From: Eukaryota sp. GEM-RC1
Lineage: Eukaryota
Direction of reading: 5' to 3'
Assembly: GCA_040285855.1 (NCBI GenBank)
Contig: JAUFOQ010000003.1
Span: 186,001 to 250,000, forward strand
DNA length: 64,000 bases
Shown: in pieces, positions 18,141-58,427 of the stretch
Position numbering within the stretch: position 1 is the stretch's first letter
How the letters are laid out: every line of letters starts with the position of its first letter
Position numbers and translations under genes: made by a program
The notes under the pieces: model-generated
Databases searched by the model: none
What the model was told of the DNA's origin: nothing
The model's input: the letters and a program-made list of their open reading frames with translations, nothing else

Positions 18141-18199
18141 TATTTGGATGATAGGAAGATGTGAAATTGAAAACTTGAGTTGGTCAAACTGCACATCAA

Positions 18200-19612
18200 A
18201 TGTTTCGAAGAACATCTTATCGACGAAAACAACAGACTGTACGACTTGTATGCTGCTCTGTACTTTCAGGGTTGCTTGTAGCCACTCTTCTTATGTATAT
18301 TAATAACTTAATTATTGAACCTGATTCATCTCCACCCAAACAAAAACCCTCTCAAAATAACGATCTTCGTTCCATCATAGACAACTCCCCCACAAAACCT
18401 GCAAAAGACTCTTCAAATCCCACAAATTCTAAACCAAACAAACCAGACCAACCTGATCAAAGTCCTTCTTCTAAACCAGTTAAACCCACAGAAAAAGAGC
18501 CTGAGTTTGACGAAGCATTGTTCAACGAGTACTTTGCTTCTACTCCAGAACCAAAACAATTCGAGAAACCTTTTCTCTCTCTTTCTGAAATGGAATTGGG
18601 AAAGCTTCGTCCAGGGAAGAAAGCCATATCCGATGATCCCAAAGCAGTGGATGTGGTGTATACTTATGTCGATGCTTCAGATACTTACTGGAAGAAAGCA
18701 CGTAACGACATCATGACTTCCGCTGACTTCTCCAAGGAATCTCAATGGAGAGACACTAAAGAGCTGCTCTTTTCCCTGCGTTCTCTCTTAAAACACGTGT
18801 CTTTCATCCGCCACGTGTACATTGTTGTCTCTGCTCCTACTCAAATCCCTTCTTGGTTGGATTCCAATCATCCTCATGTAACAATTGTTTACCACACTGA
18901 GATCTTCCCAGACAGAAGCTATCTACCTACATTCAATAGTCTCTCAATTGAAGCTAACATTTGGAGAATACCAGGGCTATCAGACAACTTTCTTTACCTT
19001 AATGACGACTTCTTTGTTGGCAGAGACGTACCTTATAGGTATTTCTTTGATAATGCAATGGGTGTTGTTCATGTAGAAAGATATTGGTTTCCTAAGCCAG
19101 ATTCGACTTTTTATCATAATAATATTTATGAAGCTTCAACTATTTTAAAAAGTCATTTTGGATTTGGGCGGGAAACTCAAGCGGGAACTTACCGAGCTAT
19201 AATGCATGCCCCCAAACTTCTCAACAGAATCGCCGCAAACTTCACTTCCTCTGTATTCTACGACGCCTATCACATCAGCAGTATGGCGAGATTCAGACAA
19301 CCAAAGGGAACACCTTACTTTGTGGGCATGATGTCACATTCTTGGGTTCAGGAAAGTTTCCGATCACCGGGGTTTTTTTCGACATCTGCCAAGTATCATC
19401 GATGTTCTCCTTCTGAGTTTAGGTTTGAGTATATGAAGAACAATCCAGGGGAGTTGAAGTTGATGGGGCAACGAATTGGAAGAATAAGACCTCAGTTTTA
19501 TTGTGTTAATAATGATTTGGAGAGTCAGACAGAAGAGGCATCAAAGATGTTTATTGATGTAATGAAGGGTTTGTACCCAGATAAAAGTCCATGGGAAAAG
19601 GAATCAGTATAA
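18200..19612 (+). CDS. Stealth-family hexose-1-phosphate transferase, type II membrane protein
   Basis: CR1 VDVVYTYVD; CR2 ELLFSLRSL...PTFNSLSIE...IPGLSDNFLYLNDDFF; CR3 HAPK; CR4 FYCVNND...YPDKSPWE; N-terminal TM followed by a Pro-rich stem. Confidence 0.9.
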   Translation: MFRRTSYRRKQQTVRLVCCSVLSGLLVATLLMYINNLIIEPDSSPPKQKPSQNNDLRSIIDNSPTKPAKDSSNPTNSKPNKPDQPDQSPSSKPVKPTEKEPEFDEALFNEYFASTPEPKQFEKPFLSLSEMELGKLRPGKKAISDDPKAVDVVYTYVDASDTYWKKARNDIMTSADFSKESQWRDTKELLFSLRSLLKHVSFIRHVYIVVSAPTQIPSWLDSNHPHVTIVYHTEIFPDRSYLPTFNSLSIEANIWRIPGLSDNFLYLNDDFFVGRDVPYRYFFDNAMGVVHVERYWFPKPDSTFYHNNIYEASTILKSHFGFGRETQAGTYRAIMHAPKLLNRIAANFTSSVFYDAYHISSMARFRQPKGTPYFVGMMSHSWVQESFRSPGFFSTSAKYHRCSPSEFRFEYMKNNPGELKLMGQRIGRIRPQFYCVNNDLESQTEEASKMFIDVMKGLYPDKSPWEKESV

Positions 19613-49189: not shown

Positions 49190-49846
49190 TATTGTTTCTA
49201 TAGATTATGGGAAGTACTAGACTTATTACGATATAGATTATGACTGCTGTCGCAACTATGGCTATAGGAACTGTGTAATGATGTAATTTCTTCTTTTCTA
49301 CGTAGGACTGATTTTCTTCGCTATCCATTTTAGTATAGCATTTTTATTTCTTTTGCGATAAATCTTGTGCAACTAGTTGACCTTCTAGAGATTGAAGATT
49401 TGGATTATTAACCATATTTGTTGGTGGTACACTAACTTCCCAAACAGGTCTAAATACATTTTCTCCTATTTGTCCTCCACCTATCTGAGTGTAATTATAT
49501 GCAGGATCATTAGGTCTAACAGCTCCTCTTCTATTTTGTTCACGTCTATTAATAAGATTCATATTGAATTGTAATCTTAGATGAATACCAGTAATTTGTA
49601 TAATTTCATTTTTTCTTATACCTGGTCTATCACCTACATTGTGAACTAGAGGTATCAATCCAAGACTATCCCAATAATAAGTTTGTCTAGTTAATCCCAA
49701 TACATCATCATCACCACCTTTTGAGAATCCACTTAGTCTATACTTTTGTTGAAAACCTTTAGGTAATAGATCATTGAATACTTGTTGACCTTGAGGTAAC
49801 TCATCTTCTGCAATATTAGGTAAAGGATTATCATAATTAATTAAGT
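49190..49846 (-). other. Endogenous virus-like fragment: partial capsid-like ORF (open from ~49850 to stop at 49344) followed 15 bp later by a small TM-protein ORF (ATG 49328)
   Basis: N/P/G/Q-rich open frame with strongly A/T-ending codons; LIPLVHNVGDRPGIRKNEIIQITGIHLRLQF resembles by eye the G...R.G..I....I..R motif of CRESS-DNA virus jelly-roll capsids. The 49190 boundary is approximate. Confidence 0.5.
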
Positions 49847-50250
49847 CTAAAGGATTTCAACAAAAGTATAGACTAAGTGGATTCTCAAAAGGTGGTGATG
49901 ATGATGTATTGGGATTAACTAGACAAACTTATTATTGGGATAGTCTTGGATTGATACCTCTAGTTCACAATGTAGGTGATAGACCAGGTATAAGAAAAAT
50001 GAAATTATACAAATTACTGGTATTCATCTAAGATTACAATTCAATATGAATCTTATTAATAGACGTGAACAAAATAGAAGAGGAGCTGTTAGACCTAATG
50101 ATCCTGCATATAATTACACTCAGATAGGTGGAGGACAAATAGGAGAAAATGTATTTAGACCTGTTTGGGAAGTTAGTGTACCACCAACAAATATGGTTAA
50201 TAATCCAAATCTTCAATCTCTAGAAGGTCAACTAGTTGCACAAGATTTAT
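49358..50250. repeat. Near-perfect inverted repeat: arms 49358-49762 and 49847-50250 (~405 bp), 84-bp spacer
   Basis: Direct comparison of the arms showed one substitution near the inner end and one A-run length difference; identical peptides appear in ORFs 49392+/50034- and 49344-/50046+. Confidence 0.97.
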
Positions 50251-50354
50251 ATGGATGAGTTCATTTTCGTCATTTGATCTCTACATGTCAAAACAGGAGG
50301 AAATCAACACTAAATGCTGCCTACTGGTTAAGGTAGACTAAAAAGTTTGTAAAA
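50231..50354 (-). ncRNA. Candidate Fanzor omega-RNA: scaffold 50354-50251 plus guide starting at 50250
   Basis: Lies directly 3' of the Fanzor stop. Minus-strand stems GTCTAC/GTAGGC, CAGCAT/GTGTTG and TTGATTTC/GAGATCAA rely on G-U pairs that form only on this strand. It ends ...ACTCATCCAT at the repeat boundary. Confidence 0.55.
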
Positions 50355-53300
50355 CTAAGAACCAGACTGATTGATCAAAACGTCCACATTTTCTTCACTC
50401 TCATCTTCTGTAACGACGTCCTTTTCCTCACTCTCCTCAGTCTCAAGACATTGTACACAACTAATCTCAGAAGTCATTTGTTCAGATTGGCTTCTGCTGA
50501 GAATAGTTGGCCTGGGTAGCCAGCTAACTTTGCCTTCATGATTTCCATAATGTTGATTCCTGAATTGAAATCCCTGTCCCACATAGTAGTACAATACTTA
50601 CACTTGAGCAAACCCCACGGTTTCACTTCAGCACGTTTCTCAAATTCCTCTTCAGCTTTTCTCCACTCTTCTTGGAAATCCATACTGTTTTTCTTACAGT
50701 ACCACTTCAGCCACTTCTTTTTCCGTTTCTTCTTTCGATGGATGTTCGGATCTGGACATGTGATTCCATGATTGTGGGTATTTTCACCAAATATTCCGTC
50801 CTTAGCACACTTAGAGCAACACTTACTAGTTCGGTACTCATCCACTAGAAAAATCTTGAACCCTGCTTTTCTAAATAGCTTCCTCATTGCTTTTCCTTTA
50901 ATTGTCGGAACAAAACCTTTCGAGCGAAAAGCAGAGTCGTTCCAATCACCATAACCGATGAGAACTTTGTTTGGTTCACCAAATTTTTTCTTGAAACGGT
51001 TGATCATTTGGTCTTCTCCCCGTTTTTTGTTGGAGTACAATTGAAGTTGCCTCTTTCTAAACCAAGTAGTACTATACAAATTCCAAGTCCTCAAGTTAAA
51101 CAGTTCTTTGTGGTATATGTACTCACAAAACTCTCCACGAACACAAGATTGTTTTTGTCCTTGATTGACAGCAGCAGAGAAGAGATTCATTGCATCTTTA
51201 CCAGTTACATCAAGACAGGTAGTCGATTCGAGCTTTCGTTGTTCTGTTTTACGGTATTTTTTGAATTTGGAGTCGTAGTTACGTTCTCCTTGAGTATAAA
51301 CAAACTTCTTAAACTTGTCTTTTTCTCTCAGCTTAACATCTTTAGAGACTTGAACTTCAGGTTTGGGTGTTCTGTGGTTTCTTCTGTTTTTAATGACACG
51401 TCCTGATGGCTTTCGTGGCCTTGTGGTTGCATCTTCTTTGATTCCTTCTTTTCCAATTCCTCAGCAGACTTTTCTGTGACAGCAACAGTTGGGGCATACT
51501 TATTTGGATCAATGCCCACAAGAGTTCTTTCTCTGAGATTTAATTCCTCAATATCGGCATCGGTTAAATCATCCAGATACTTTTCTTCAGTATGCAATTG
51601 AATTGTAGAATATTTTTTCCTACTAAATCGTTTCTTTGTAAAACAAGTGAAACTGAAACACCATCAGTTTGGAGTGAGTTTTTGAAGCAGTAATTTGCCT
51701 TAGTAGATTTGGAAGCATCTAGCATCTCTGTTAAGTAGGGAATCCCAAATTTCTGTTCCATATTGGACAGAACGACTTGTGTAAAATTTCTTTGTTTGTT
51801 TTTTGAAAATTTTCTCTCCAGCAATCTTGGATTCTAAATCGTGAGCTTCAGACATGGCTTCTTTTTTGAAAAAATTACCTAAAACAACTTTAGTGTCGAC
51901 TCTAAAATGCTGTGGAATGACAGTGTCGGTAAAAGGAAGACAATTTGGAATACTGCAAGGATTTCCTCTTTCATCAGTTTCAGCTCTAACAAGCCTTGTT
52001 ATAAAAAATTGCATGAGGCAACAACTTCCTTAGATGGACCTTTTGAGAATAGAATAAGTTTTTATCTTTGACAAATATTGAAGTAAAATGACTTTCCAGA
52101 TAGTCTTTAAAATTTCTACAAATACTTCTTTCAGGATTTTCAAATAAGTCAAAATTGATTTCAGAAATTTTACAATCAATAATTTTTTCTCTCAATTGTT
52201 TGAACTGGGTCAACAATTCTTGTTTTTCAATCACATGGTCTTTTAACTCTGTTATTCTCGATTTTTTATTCAAACAAATGTTCATGGCACGGAAAATGTA
52301 TTCATGAAAGTGCATTTTCAAATGAGTAGCATAATTTGCACGTACATGTCTTGAATGGTATTTCAAAATTTGATCCATTAATTTGTAGGAAGGAGCTAGG
52401 AAATCGTAATCATCCTCAAAAACTTGAGGTTGTAAATATGTCCATGATGCGACATTTTGTTCAACGGAGATCATTTCGAGAATTGGCAAGTAATAGTCCA
52501 AACATAGGTGAGCCATCCTACATCTCATTGAGACTAGATCACTAGACACAGTACCTCTTTTCGATGTTCTTTCAACAAGTTCCACAGTTTCCGAATCTTC
52601 CATTTCGATCTCTTCTTCTTCCTGTTCAATTTTGTTGTACAATACTTGCATCTTTTCATCACAACCTTGTTTTTCATAGTAGTGTTCCAATTCACTTCTT
52701 TTTGACAAACAGACCACCATAAAGACTCCAGAACCTTGTTTTTTCTTGAAGAATGTCCAAGTTGGGTAATTCGTGAGGTTTTTCATTTATTTGACGATCA
52801 TATTCATCAATAAAGAATAACTTTAAGAGCATTCTACCTCTGGTATTGATTCTACTAAAATTCTTTCCAATTCTGCGAAATTTATTAAGATCAGATTGTT
52901 GATCATGGGGATTGGGATCTTTGAGAATTTGACGAAGATCACATTTGACAGATTTAACAGCAGGAAGAAACAACATTGTTTGCAATTTTTTATCTAAGAA
53001 GAAGTCTACTAAGTGACGACATAATTCAACATCATTAATACAATAACAAGCAAGAGACGTACGGTCTTCATCTGAACCATTCCACAATCGTTCAATTTCT
53101 TTCAACTTAGCTAAAGTAGTTTGATTTCTTAACATTTCATAACCTTGACTCTTGTACTTAGTTTTAAGACGAACTTTCTCATCTTCGGATAAAAGACCCA
53201 ATTTTTGAATGTGTGAACCTTCAAACAGATATGAAACAACATTTTCCAATGATCTACCTCCGGGAAACGTATAAGTAGAACGTAAGAGTTGATACAAATC

Positions 53301-53850
53301 CAGAGACCAAATAGAAGCAAGATTTGATTTTTTAGCCCATCTTTGAAAAACCCACAGACAACAAACAGAACCTTCACCCAGTTTAATTAAGAAATTGATT
53401 TCCACACCAAGCAGTTGACATCGACGAACAATAAACGGCAAATCAAATGAATTTAAATTGTAGCCACAAATGAGTTTTGGCTTTTCCAATTTCAGGAGAT
53501 TGATAAATTCAACCAACATTTCCTTTTCATTTTCAAAATGAAGAACTTCAGCATTGAGATCATCAGTAAGAACTGGCTTAGAAGTAAACAAGAAACTCCT
53601 TGACTCTTGTAAAGGATGTTCAAAAGTATTTACAAGTTGGATTCCAATCTGGATGATTGAATCATTTTCAAAGTCAGGTTTCAACTGATCTGGTTCTTCA
53701 GACAATTCAGAGATTGGTTTGGCTTCTGAATCGAGTTCATCGTCTGCAGCATCTTTTTTCTCCGAAGTTTTAGGGAGTTTTACAGTATGCAATTCTTTTG
53801 CCGAAAGAGATTCAATGTCCAGAAAAGATATAACTCCTCAGCTTCTAGAA
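50355..53850 (-). CDS. Fanzor1-type RNA-guided nuclease with N-terminal PolB-type DEDDy 3'-5' exonuclease domain (~1150 aa after correcting ~7-8 indels; intact gene versus pseudogene unresolved)
   Basis: Exo I FLDIES (53808-53819), Exo II GYNLNSFD, Exo III YCIND. Then KSVKCDL, HLKMHF, IPQHFRVDT, QTDGVSVS, RuvC-I GIDPN (D at 51508-51510), FRKRQL, IGYGDW, RuvC-II VDEYRTSKCCSKC (E at 50837-50839), KCKYC, RuvC-III WDRDFNSGINI (D at 50570-50572), RPTILSR. Confidence 0.9.
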
Positions 53851-54071
53851 ACTGCAAAGGAGATTCGGACAGTACAGTTTTCTTCTTATGAGCAGGTTCT
53901 GTACCAAGACTTGAAAGACTCAATCTTGTACCGATGGGATCAGATTTGGGATCAGATTGTGGACCTGGAATGGATTCCACATCACCATCAGACGTAAGAT
54001 CAATTTTGAACTGCAGTCTACAATCAAAACTGACAGAAATTTGCAAAAAACGACACTTCAATAAAATTTGA

Positions 54072-54102
54072 CCACCACCACCAAAACCACCACCACCACC
54101 AC
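54072..54102. repeat. Interrupted (CCA)n/(GGT)n microsatellite upstream of the Fanzor ORF
   Basis: CCACCACCACCAAAACCACCACCACCACCAC. Confidence 0.8.
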
Positions 54103-55366
54103 CGATCCACTGAATTTTACAAGGAGGCAAGTTTGGGGGCTGGAAAGCAGTGTGTTGCCCTGGTGGTTCTATCACCATGCTGGGCATGTAAAAATGATAG
54201 GCCTGACTGCCAAATACAACACACATACTCCCATAAAAAACCCTCGACTTCGAAAAAATGAAAAATTTGGATTGAATTGGATCAATGACCAAAAATGCCT
54301 TCCTTGGGGTTTTGATTGAACAATGATGCCTTTGAATAGCATATTGCCGCCCGGTCCCACCCAGGCTGTATGGATACAAGATATCTAAAGAAGTTGCTTC
54401 TGTAGAATTCCACCTGATTTGATAGGACGACTTTCCCACCAAAAAGAGGCCTCTCATAACCGTCGAATCAATGAACATCGACATGTGAGCAGAAAATGGA
54501 CCATTTTGTGGGTTGTTGGTATTTATAGATGTGTCTATGTCATGTCAGTCAAGACATTTATTGACGATTGTCTTCATTTTTCACTTTTCAGTGTCCTCTA
54601 CATGGACAATTGTCATGAATTTGCTCCTTTCAGTTGTTCTTTCAACAATTCACATCTTTCTTTTGATTTCACATTCATATATCACAACCCTTCATGATTG
54701 CTTTGGTACAGAATCTTCCATAAACTTCTCTCAACGACTCCTCTCTTCCTCGGTTCCCTTATCAGACTTCTACTCTGTTGTTGTAAATGTAGAATTGGAC
54801 GACACAATTTGGTCTCAATGGCTTCCATGGAGACGTTTTGCTGGAGGAAGGAGATACCAAGAACATTAAACGAGCCCTCCCAAGTCTCAGTCTTTCATCT
54901 TACATCACTCAGTCAACTCTCGTCTTTCCGATGCATCAACAGACATGTAACATTCCCTTTTCAATATAGATTTATCTTCTCTTAGTGTTACCACTCTTGC
55001 TATGTATCAATCTCATACTACAAGTCAGAAGATACTCCAGAATCATAGTCCATTGTGATGCTTATTTATCTTCATCAATAAACCAAACAACTTTTCTACT
55101 TTTTGTGCTAACTTCTTCAAATGGACAAAACAAGAGAAAAAGTTCATTACAATTCCTCTCCATTGGGATCCCTAATAGCCCAGAAATCAAAAGATTCACG
55201 TTTTGGACCTTTAATTCTTGCAATCATTTCACGTTTCTTGTGAGTCGGAACGTCCCAAGCGGTGAGAACAGTCATTTGATCTCCATGTGTGACTCAGCCA
55301 CGGCAAATAAAAGCTATGAATATGACAAATTACTGGGCGTATTTCTGTTGGAACTAATAGTTCTTA

Positions 55367-56013
55367 TCGTCGAGGTCCTAATACAAGCAAGGTCCTAATA
55401 CAAGCGTAGTAGAGGGTATGCTTGTATTGTTTCACAAAATAAACTCACAGATTTCTTTTATAAAATACTGTTTTCTATATATAAAACCGCCGAGATTCAT
55501 ATTGGAATTATATATAGATCTCATTTACTAGTTACAAAAGCACTTATCCATTACTAATTGAAAAGACTAGAACACCTGATGAACAAGTCTGTAACGCAAG
55601 AATAGCTAAACTTCTAGGATACAACGATACAATGATGTGTCTCAACTTTTACGGCAATTTATATTGGTTCTATAGACACTAGTTTTAGTTATGCATTTGA
55701 TCTCAAGGTGGTCGATAATTTACGAGATTAACGAAAACCTTGTTTGACCAAGAAATTGTAGACGTGACTCATTTTGCTGTTTATTTTGGTTCGATTAATC
55801 TAGATGTCGGTCAGGATTGATCGACATACTGGAAAAGATAACTGATTGACGTTATTAAGTATCCATCTCAATGTTAGTGATCTTGTTATGAATATTATTT
55901 GATTATACAAAGGGAGATTTCGAGGACCCTAATACAAGCAAGTTTCCAATACAAGCATAGTAAAGGGTATGCTTGTATATTATTTAAGGTTGCTTGTATT
56001 GGGACCCTGACGA
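55367..56013. mobile_element. Non-autonomous TIR element (~647 bp), TA-flanked
   Basis: TCGTCGAGGTCCTAATACAAGCAA versus TTGCTTGTATTGGGACCCTGACGA; repeated AATACAAGC and AGGGTATGCTTGTAT subterminal units. Confidence 0.8.
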
Positions 56014-57611
56014 TATTGGTCAAATTTAGATTCTAAATGATATATCGTTGAGAAACACTGGAATACATACTAGTACTACAGAACATACATGTATCGGAAG
56101 ACGTGAACACTGTATCTTGAAGACATTGTACATATTAGCACACCACCGCTGTGTCTTTTCAAAAGCACCGTTTAAAGGTGGTAAAACAATAATGCAATAC
56201 ATAAGTTAGCCATATCATTTTGTTTTAAATTCTCCAACAGAATGAATCATCTCAGATTACAAAAGAATAAACGCATTAACTGGTTATTTAAGAGCTTTCT
56301 TGGAAGTGTAGTATTTATATCCATCAATTATGATGTATTGAATGATTTTCGGGAACAAATACATGTACTGTCGTTGGAATTCTCTCAAATAATCTTTAGT
56401 CTCATTAACGACTATCAGTATGAGTACAGTAAATGTAGATGGATATTGATATGGGAACGACGCAATAGTATAGGTAGTGTAAATGCTCATTGTAATAGTT
56501 TTACAATGTTGATTGTAAGCACTATTGTAATACAGATCAAATAACACCAATGACACGTCACTATACGTGGCAACACCCCATATATTTGTTCGCAGTTCTA
56601 GAAACCTTTTCACCACTACAAAAACATTTGTTGCTTAAGATTGAATGGAATATCAAACGTCAATTTTTGAAACAATTTTTAATTCTGTTCTGACCTAGGC
56701 TTTTCAATGAAAGAGTCTACTGCACATACCAGTAGTGGCCACAGTTTAGGTTAATTACAATTAATGGAATCATAAAAAATTTGAGCGCATTCATATTCTG
56801 GGTAGATTAATTCACAGTAATTCATTAATCTAGATTTGTTTAATAGGCAAAAAACGGAATGGTGATTCTCTCAAACTTATTTACATTTGAGTGCTGGAAA
56901 GTTTACCAGTGGAATCCAATTCCATGAAGGTCTTCCAGCACATTCAGAAGCAATCATCTTACGCAGGAAATCTTAAAATGCAAAAAGTAGTAAGTCTTAG
57001 TTTAATGGACTAGTACATTGCTCAAAGAAGACACATAATCAGAAAGTCTAGCACAAATCATTTCTTTGTTAGATTCATCTATTTCAGCTATCAGAGTGGT
57101 AGAGTATAACGTCACCAAGAACATACTAGTAGAACAATGCTATATTTGTGATCAACGAACTCCAGGTTTTTACGTTCGAGCTCACATAAAATAATATTCT
57201 TCGGGGTTACTATAGTGGTACATTCGTGAACAAATCTCGAAGGGATGAACGTGATAAAAATCCTTCAAACGAAACGTCTTTTCAGTAAAGATTTCCTTAA
57301 TGTTATTTGTATTCCAAAGAAAGGGCTTGTTGCTTAAGAATGAATTGAATGTCAACAGCAGTTTTCGAAACAATGTCATAGAAAAGTTCGATAACAGTTC
57401 AAGGAAGTTCCAATCCTACAGAGAGGATGTGCATTGACAAAGTAGCTCGAAATAGCAGAACTAAACAGAATGTAGATGGCACAAAGAAAACCTCTCCGTT
57501 AAACATGCAAAATAGTGCTAGATTGATGAACTAGTAACAATGAAACAGTGGAAGTACTGTTCAAAAGAGGAAAGTTCGCATTTCATACCCATTTCTTCAA
57601 CTACTAATCGA

Positions 57612-58427
57612 ATGAACATCTTCTTCTTGTCCATCGACCCTGAAGAGGCTGCCAGAGACATGTGTGATCCCCATGTTGTTAAAATGACATTGGAATCCAC
57701 GCAACTTCTCTTCACTTGCCATCACCTTGTTTCTACTTCCACTGAGTGGATTTTAAGATTCCAATCAGAAACTGGTAAAGAACCATACAAAGCCTCGCAT
57801 CAGAAACATGGTTGTCAGATATGGCTTCAACAAGGAAGTGCCAACTACGAGTGGTTATGTCGGCATGCGGTGGCAATGGTTGCTGAGTACAAAAGAAGGT
57901 ATGGAGACAAACCAATGTCTGTTGAACCTCTTCTTCAATGGCTTCAAAACAACGTTCCAGACAATTTACCAAGAACTAAACAATTGACAGAGATCTACTT
58001 GGCAATGCCCGAAGAATGTAAGTATTACTGGTATGTCGAATCAACTGAATCATACGAGAATATGTTAAATCGGACAGTACAATCTTATAGATTGTACTAT
58101 CTATTATTCAAGTCCAGATTTGCTCGCTACTATTATACTAAAGTGCCGTACTGGCTGGAAGAAACATTGTTCTATATCCAAAGTCTTTCAGATTCTGACT
58201 ATTTGTCCCTAATTCCCCAAGAATCTCCAATGAGGAAGGTTATCTTAAAAAAACCACCGAAAGTTCCCAAGGGAATTAGGTCAAGGGTTGCAAGAAAAAG
58301 AACAAAGAGTATAAACGCTGATAAACAGATCACAGCTCCCATTGTAAAAGATGAACCTTATCCGGACGTTAAGTTCAGAAGAATAACAAGATCCATGACA
58401 GAGAGTCCGCTGCATAATCTATTGTGA
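57612..58427 (+). CDS. Pyrimidine-dimer DNA glycosylase family (T4 endonuclease V-like) protein with basic C-terminal tail
   Basis: MNIFFLSIDPEEAARDMCDPHVVKMTLESTQLL, YKASHQKHGCQIW, NYEWL, EYKRRYG, LAMPEECK and VQSYRLYY match the motif pattern of the phage, bacterial and giant-virus family. Confidence 0.8.
   Translation: MNIFFLSIDPEEAARDMCDPHVVKMTLESTQLLFTCHHLVSTSTEWILRFQSETGKEPYKASHQKHGCQIWLQQGSANYEWLCRHAVAMVAEYKRRYGDKPMSVEPLLQWLQNNVPDNLPRTKQLTEIYLAMPEECKYYWYVESTESYENMLNRTVQSYRLYYLLFKSRFARYYYTKVPYWLEETLFYIQSLSDSDYLSLIPQESPMRKVILKKPPKVPKGIRSRVARKRTKSINADKQITAPIVKDEPYPDVKFRRITRSMTESPLHNLL

Follow-up and report, generated by a model that had tools for sequence, protein, structure and literature searches.

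The 64,000-nucleotide stretch analysed here (the window: contig JAUFOQ010000003.1 of GenBank assembly GCA_040285855.1, positions 186,001 to 250,000, from Eukaryota sp. GEM-RC1) carries on its minus strand a gene in which a proofreading-type 3'-5' exonuclease of family B DNA polymerases (PolB) is joined to a Fanzor1, behind a 2A-like motif. Together with its relatives in skoliomonads, the free-living metamonads to which Eukaryota sp. GEM-RC1 and Eukaryota sp. TZLM3-RCL belong (PMC11316075), this gene represents a real, conserved and apparently undescribed Fanzor1 architecture. Judged from sequence comparison, the exonuclease-Fanzor1 is a multi-copy gene family in free-living protists, and probably a mobile one. 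We refer to window-like copies as family A and to three further families by their reference proteins (B, P0023; C, P0001; D, P0006); copies other than that in the window were compared with it at the protein level only.

The exonuclease domain has the residues expected of the PolB DEDDy class, namely DxE in Exo I, D in Exo II and YxxxD in Exo III. Exo I reads DIES (D at 53819, E at 53813), Exo II reads GYNLNSFD (D at 53444), and Exo III reads YCIND (Y at 53045, D at 53033). The open reading frame (ORF) that holds them matches the Pfam family DNA_pol_B_exo1 (PF03104) at E 8e-20, and its nearest solved relative is DNA polymerase delta (Pol delta), found at E 6e-9 with the single sequence, with the Exo III stretch aligned, and at E 1e-11 with a profile. 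A low-confidence model of the exonuclease (mean predicted local distance difference test, pLDDT, 43) also led to Pol delta in Foldseek, at E 9e-6. The Pol delta match does not separate the host Pol delta from a viral relative as the source of the domain. As the earlier note had it, no polymerase palm follows: scans of 12, 46 and 51 window ORFs gave no DNA_pol_B match, nor did the fused relatives, so without a palm domain after the exonuclease this is not a whole family B DNA polymerase. From its motifs, we predict a DEDDy 3'-5' exonuclease with intact active-site residues.

The Fanzor1 part is likewise a predicted RNA-guided-type DNA cutter. The earlier note had described an intact RuvC D-E-D triad and intact zinc-finger cysteines, and both are there: D in IDPN (51510), E in DEYRTS (50839) and D in DRDFN (50572), with both CxxC pairs present in the window copy. 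The published C-terminal motif of Fanzor1, D-X(125-275)-[TS][TS]-xx-C4 zinc finger-X-RD (PMC3627910), is found in the window as IDPN, DEYRTSKCCSKC, CKYC and DRDFN and is kept in the relatives, and the RuvC/TNB piece at 50474-51460 matches Cas12f1-like_TNB (E 1.5e-6). The earlier note had proposed an AlphaFold model; an AlphaFold2 model of the relative P0003 has a mean pLDDT of 67.5, with the Fanzor part mostly at 80-97 and the exonuclease at 30-78. This model retrieved SpuFz, PpFz and GtFz at E 2e-19 to 9e-15; the top seven Foldseek matches were all Fanzor1 structures and PolB chains came next. As modelled, this relative has the WED/REC/RuvC fold of Fanzor1.

The earlier note placed Exo I to III in one frame with the Fanzor start and held that the fusion does not depend on frameshift correction. 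The ORF at 52692-53837 (minus strand) indeed contains Exo I-III and runs without a stop into the Fanzor start (KSVKCDLRQIL...GRMLLKLFFI...LPNLD). Independence from frameshift correction holds for the first ~80 Fanzor residues, which is all that the exonuclease frame covers in this copy, but not for the rest, where seven further breaks (52744 to 50517) must be crossed to arrive at the end of RuvC. Alignment of the window copy to its relatives puts single-base breaks at eight places, near 53826 (upstream of the others), 52744, 52712, 52003, 51708, 51616, 51452 and 50517. They lie mostly in or beside homopolymer runs, six alignments to relatives gave no in-frame stop, and they are probably assembly errors. 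In nearby host genes, 10 of 14 frame junctions lack an intron-like motif, which suggests indel errors across the assembly; the neighbouring cyclophilin gene has a short GT-AG intron. Introns are ruled out as the source of the window-copy breaks, which are single-base against the sister copies. Two breaks, both in A-runs, are common to three family A copies each (~52744 in the window copy, P0210 and P0213; ~51452 in the window copy, P0190 and P0191) and reflect either systematic read error or a common lesion. Programmed -1 frameshifting at ~52744 was rejected: families B and C read through, and the site, judged by the canonical slippery-heptamer pattern, has no such heptamer. Since the window copy is broken, the case for one protein rests on the relatives, where it is strong.

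The relatives also move the start of the gene. The earlier note ended the feature at 53850, which proved too short: sister copies read the 2A motif, linker, exonuclease and Fanzor start in one frame, and P0213 aligns to the window from 54187, with 460 of 474 residues identical. A 254-residue ORF at 53780-54544 was considered as a polymerase N-terminal domain or a transposase and set aside, having no Pfam match, a PHROG match at E 0.34 only and no usable Atlas match; the sisters show the 2A motif at the end of this ORF.

Sister copies that are 91-97% identical to the window exonuclease region carry the name Eukaryota sp. GEM-RC1. Among 585 candidates, the RuvC piece had six longer relatives; three carry the exonuclease family, all from Eukaryota sp. 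TZLM3-RCL, and they stand for clusters of 4, 6 and 12 members. In total we compared 31 proteins of families A-C. In eighteen of them a single frame runs from Exo III to the Fanzor start, the others being fragments that do not reach across the joint, and nine have all exonuclease and RuvC motifs in one ORF. The catalytic residues are kept in every protein that covers them, for the exonuclease (19/19, 19/19, 19/19, 18/18 and 18/18, references included) as for RuvC (19/19, 16/16 and 15/15, three references included). The three families are only 42, 36 and 37% identical to one another in the exonuclease, and the Fanzor lobes of B and C have diverged to a like degree (38.5 and 41.4% identity), yet all five proteins checked, which represent three families, have 25 residues between the Exo III aspartate and the first Fanzor strand. 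The in-frame joint, the kept catalytic residues and the fixed spacing at 36-42% identity together argue that the fusion is old and maintained. The earlier note had named confinement to a single decayed copy as grounds for dropping the idea, and in-frame relatives in three families show that it is not so confined.

Family D and the 2A motif both go beyond what the earlier note saw. The 1560-residue ORF of P0006 reads 2A motif, Ulp1/C48 protease (E 3e-7), degenerate exonuclease and Fanzor1; its exonuclease is still recognised by profile (E 1e-11 to 3e-14), with the catalytic motifs and the Exo III helix lost. In a midpoint-rooted FastTree tree of 119 Fanzor cores, from which representatives under 590 residues and most near-duplicate copies were left out, the 11 rows from skoliomonads group together (Shimodaira-Hasegawa-like support 96) with family D as sister to the rest (99). 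This topology fits an exonuclease that was captured once and decayed afterwards in family D, on a midpoint-rooted tree in which the N-termini of P0192 and P0195 are not covered. These last two belong to further skoliomonad Fanzor1 families (P0195, 26 cluster members; P0192, 2), which have a CxxC-xxxx-H-xxxx-C knuckle-like tail after RuvC.

The 2A core D(V/I)ExNPGP is intact in P0211 and P0213 (both GDVESNPGP) and in families B, C and D (GDIEKNPGP, GDVEANPGP and GDIESNPGP), whereas two copies deviate: the window copy, where DVESIPGP at 53983-53960 has I in place of the conserved N, and P0210 (GNVESNPGP, N for D). From its sequence, the motif is a candidate ribosome-skipping site. The leaders ahead of it are unrelated from family to family, and the linker between it and the exonuclease is 47 residues long in the window copy, 74 in family B and 169 in family C. 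Motifs of this kind are rare in cellular genomes (10.64898/2026.09.24.754024) and are known near the long ORF's N-terminus in non-LTR (non-long-terminal-repeat) retrotransposons (PMC3708506). No natural 2A peptide in a Fanzor appeared in the literature searched, judged by titles or abstract openings.

The architecture is rare in the sets searched. The earlier note had proposed searching for co-occurring exonuclease and Fanzor profiles. A profile run against 1.84 billion representatives gave 3909 matches at E 0.001, and of the best 150 listed, P0001 and P0041, both from skoliomonads, were alone in scoring with the exonuclease profile. We also looked at 134 loci (53 from metagenomes, the best 80 of 149 viral ones, and one unrelated). 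Fanzor ORFs in 132 of them, the longest 921 residues and some clipped by contig ends, include none with an exonuclease or 2A motif, and the two exonuclease matches in the set are separate polymerase genes. None of 96 pattern matches in metagenomes was confirmed as a close relative, and for the exonuclease profile in viral contigs the tally was 0 of 37. Word-index searches for exonuclease relatives returned 2 of 7347 and 2 of 7994 candidates and are weak as tests of absence.

In the literature, the earlier note knew of no description of this architecture, and it is absent from the Fanzor papers searched. The word "exonuclease" does not occur in the main texts of PMC3627910, PMC10432273, PMC10530073, 10.1101/2023.08.09.552727 and PMC11423790, nor in the readable supplements of PMC10432273 and PMC10530073; a listing in the supplements of the bioRxiv preprints, of the 2013 Fanzor paper or in the one unreadable supplement of PMC10432273 is possible. 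No natural Fanzor-exonuclease fusion came up in literature searches or in the Fanzor passages of 10.64898/2026.06.03.729735, and "Fanzor" does not occur in the text of PMC11316075. Exonucleases in mobile elements do have precedents in Dada transposases (PMC3706591) and bdelloid retroelements (PMC5408684; also PMC6338049).

Table 1. Features of the fusion gene and its surroundings, in window coordinates
Feature	Position	Strand	Basis or remark
Leader peptide with 2A/StopGo-like end	53960..54187	minus	Comparison with sister copies; predicted
Low-complexity linker, 2A to exonuclease	53827..53959	minus	Predicted disordered in both structure models
PolB (Pol delta-type) DEDDy 3'-5' exonuclease and 25-residue joint to Fanzor	52956..53826	minus	PF03104, E 8e-20
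Fanzor1 WED/REC lobe, broken by indels	51520..52955	minus	tblastn and frameshift-aware alignment to relatives; model of relative P0003
Fanzor1 RuvC, zinc-finger/TNB region and acidic C-terminal tail	50355..51519	minus	Stop at 50355-50357
Candidate omegaRNA / right-end region	50251..50354	minus	Position by analogy only
Direct-repeat copies, candidate target-site duplication (weak)	50269..50288 and 55271..55288		18/20 nucleotides match
Near-perfect 405-bp inverted repeat, 84-bp loop, one indel, one mismatch	49358..50250		Starts 105 bp past Fanzor stop

In the 3' region of the gene (Table 1), where a guide RNA would be expected by analogy, the predicted fold is no better than shuffles (z +0.31; best z -1.38 among seven windows), and Rfam gave no relevant match. 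Around the gene no terminal inverted repeat was found, and no poly(A) tail follows the Fanzor ORF. The direct repeat is a possible, weak candidate for a target-site duplication around an element of ~5 kb: a score as high occurred in none of 33 natural windows, in 6 of 500 shuffles and in 11 of 500 random pieces, with the regions picked after the match had been seen. The large inverted repeat is probably flank, outside the element. Its ORF matches in the Atlas only clusters of Cressdnaviricota (top score 0.90 with low recognition value) and has no match in Pfam, PHROGs or the PDB; in viral contigs it found one unconvincing 12-residue match. The resemblance of this fragment to the capsid of a CRESS-DNA (circular, Rep-encoding single-stranded DNA) virus is a lead only, and the repeat could be the source of a hairpin RNA against a virus or an assembly fold-back.

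Several neighbours deserve mention in their own right. Just upstream of the candidate left end, at 55365-56015, there is a unit like a miniature inverted-repeat transposable element, with 26-nucleotide inverted ends (88%) and internal 51-nucleotide direct repeats. The ORF at 57522-58427 (plus strand) resembles pyrimidine-dimer glycosylases of a sort that viruses commonly carry (Pfam E 3e-4, below the cut-off; phrog_624, E 5e-43). The cyclophilin gene (48577-49160) and a short decayed duplicate (57327-57391) flank the region. PpFz1 binds cyclophilins (PMC11423790), and the meeting of a cyclophilin and a Fanzor at this one locus is probably coincidence. Further away, at 18179-19609 (plus strand), the protist encodes a Stealth-family protein (CR2, CR4).

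What might a proofreading exonuclease do on a Fanzor? The reading we prefer, while giving it a little less than an even chance, is that of a single protein with the exonuclease held at a fixed distance from Fanzor1, behind a 2A-like motif, in which the exonuclease trims the cut 3' tail so that repair copies the element in. Fanzor1 cuts the non-target strand 14-17 nucleotides from the target-adjacent motif (TAM; PMC10432273), and TnpB retains its element by cutting element-free donor joints (PMC10055086). After a cut at such an empty site, protospacer sequence would be left on the TAM-side fragment as a displaced, single-stranded 3' tail, and this tail could not pair with the left end of the element in the donor copy. 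A tethered exonuclease may remove this tail back towards the TAM, leaving a primer for copying through the element, and at the 2A motif the enzyme would be released from any leader that precedes it in translation. In yeast break repair, Pol delta proofreading chews back 3' ends and removes tails (PMC9477423), and the in-frame DEDDy domain of Dada transposases has been proposed to process cleaved 3' ends (PMC3706591). We count in favour of 3'-tail trimming that the Exo residues of a Pol delta-type DNA enzyme are kept in families A-C. Spread to new loci would require a transposase or retro-machinery acting in trans, of which none was found around the gene. A bolder version seems to us less likely than not: a natural, two-nuclease, RNA-guided "cut, trim and copy" element, in which the captured Pol delta domain resects to the insertion point, host repair does the copying with no transposase belonging to the element, and guides come from flanks, which may include viral DNA.

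Several observations weigh against the trimming proposal. Copy-back repair by itself yields no dispersed copies, so that another mobiliser is needed, and no transposase family matched the 51 short ORFs, the longer ORFs near the gene or the fused proteins. The joint puts the exonuclease at the WED end, while the RuvC cut would fall at the far end of the duplex, and the models, which contain no nucleic acids and are weak in the exonuclease (pLDDT mostly 30-78), do not show it reaching the tail. The element ends and the guide RNA are undefined at the locus. The linker, taken as a neutral control, is 32-41% identical on few aligned columns and gives no clean baseline for conservation. Lastly, the family D cluster (23 members, 15 of them listed) is the largest TZLM3-RCL cluster looked up, and since family D is abundant with a dead exonuclease, the activity is dispensable in at least one abundant lineage.

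Other readings share part of this evidence. The earlier note had suggested a cut-and-chew effector, or one that trims its guide or captured DNA. On one hand, the exonuclease could be destructive, degrading the cut ends, blocking re-ligation and forcing deletions or destroying the target, possibly small circular viruses. The same intact nuclease residues would serve this, the capsid-like hairpin 105 bp past the stop lies near where a guide would be read, and engineered exonuclease-Cas fusions are in print. However, the hairpin is present at one locus with its viral nature a lead only, the candidate right end at 50289 would make the guide the duplicated flank and not a capsid arm, and many dispersed, near-identical copies are what one would sooner expect of a selfish element than of a gene for host defence. 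We infer that 3'-tail trimming for copy-back fits such a selfish, multi-copy element better than a deletion-biasing cut does, and we regard the destructive role as unlikely. On the other hand, the exonuclease might act on RNA, trimming the 3' end of a read-through transcript to the length of the mature omegaRNA. Fanzor omegaRNAs end at a fixed 14-15 nucleotides past the scaffold (PMC10432273), the DEDDy class includes RNA 3'-processing enzymes (PMC5408684), and a fixed joint would suit a ruler. But the domain is of the polymerase proofreading type, nearest Pol delta and not RNase D, and unfused Fanzors mature their guides in yeast without this domain (PMC10432273), and we regard guide maturation as unlikely.

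It is also conceivable, if rather unlikely, that the protein is a transposon polyprotein carrying uncoupled cargo, with the exonuclease serving a transposase or reverse transcriptase in trans, or acting as a binding module, independently of the Fanzor cut. Ulp1 is an accessory part of transposons, and family D, having gained it, let its exonuclease decay. In addition, 2A motifs and DEDDy domains are accessory parts of mobile elements (PMC3708506, PMC3706591, PMC5408684). However, the 2A motif stands ahead of the exonuclease and not between it and the Fanzor, and a joint of invariant length over three families argues for a coupled, rigid unit. That the whole arrangement is an artefact, in which an error of sequencing in a single decayed copy joined a Fanzor to a neighbouring remnant of a polymerase, has a negligible probability. 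The eight frame breaks of the window copy and the frame changes of nearby host genes would be in its favour, but the joint is crossed in frame by 18 proteins, which come from two named organisms and keep one spacing at 36-42% identity, and the relatives have already refuted it.

A second conserved catalytic domain on a Fanzor means that a step after the cut can be probed by mutating either active site, and public databases already contain nine relatives that are intact over their full length. Should the exonuclease shape the ends of the cut, the fusion would be nature's equivalent of the exonuclease-Cas fusions made by engineering, and a lead towards steering how breaks are repaired; if cutting, trimming and copying were all to hold true, the protein would amount to a ready-made editor in a single chain, with end processing under control. 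Fanzor emerges from the 2A motif and the Ulp1-bearing sister family as a modular polyprotein core, a layout otherwise of retrotransposons and RNA viruses, and the protease-Fanzor fusion of family D merits separate attention.

Among known systems, the fusion is closest to Fanzor1 itself (SpuFz1, GtFz1, PpFz1), with which it shares the WED/REC/RuvC/TNB fold, the D-E-D triad, the C4 zinc finger and an existence in many copies, here seen at the protein level, without a transposase of its own (PMC10432273). Unlike these, it is about 1200-1500 residues long, against 590-730 in the matched solved chains, adds an N-terminal proofreading exonuclease and a 2A-like motif, and lies, in the window, at a locus where inverted ends and omegaRNA were not found. 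With the PolB, DEDDy proofreading domain of Pol delta it has in common Exo I, II and III and the NGxxxxRxxLAxYCxxD stretch; it differs in lacking palm, fingers and thumb, in a charged insertion after Exo I, and in being joined to a Fanzor after the Exo III helix. Dada transposases and the DEDDy ORFs of bdelloid retroelements are also mobile-element enzymes with an intact 3'-5' exonuclease and a proposed role in 3'-end processing. Their partners, however, are a DDE transposase or retroelement ORFs, in place of the RNA-guided-type RuvC nuclease of the fusion; the exonuclease is RNase D-like in the bdelloid elements and PolB-type in the skoliomonads, and no transposase family, such as the DDE type of Dada, matched the fused proteins or the ORFs scanned near the gene. 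The 2A-bearing non-LTR retrotransposons (Ingi, L1Tc, CR1, L2, Rex1) have the same D(V/I)ExNPGP near the N-terminus of a long ORF (PMC3708506), but the fusion has no reverse transcriptase, APE domain or poly(A) tail. Finally, engineered fusions of the Cas9-TREX2 type likewise unite a guided nuclease and a 3'-5' exonuclease in one chain, while the skoliomonad fusion is natural, rigidly joined and polymerase-derived.

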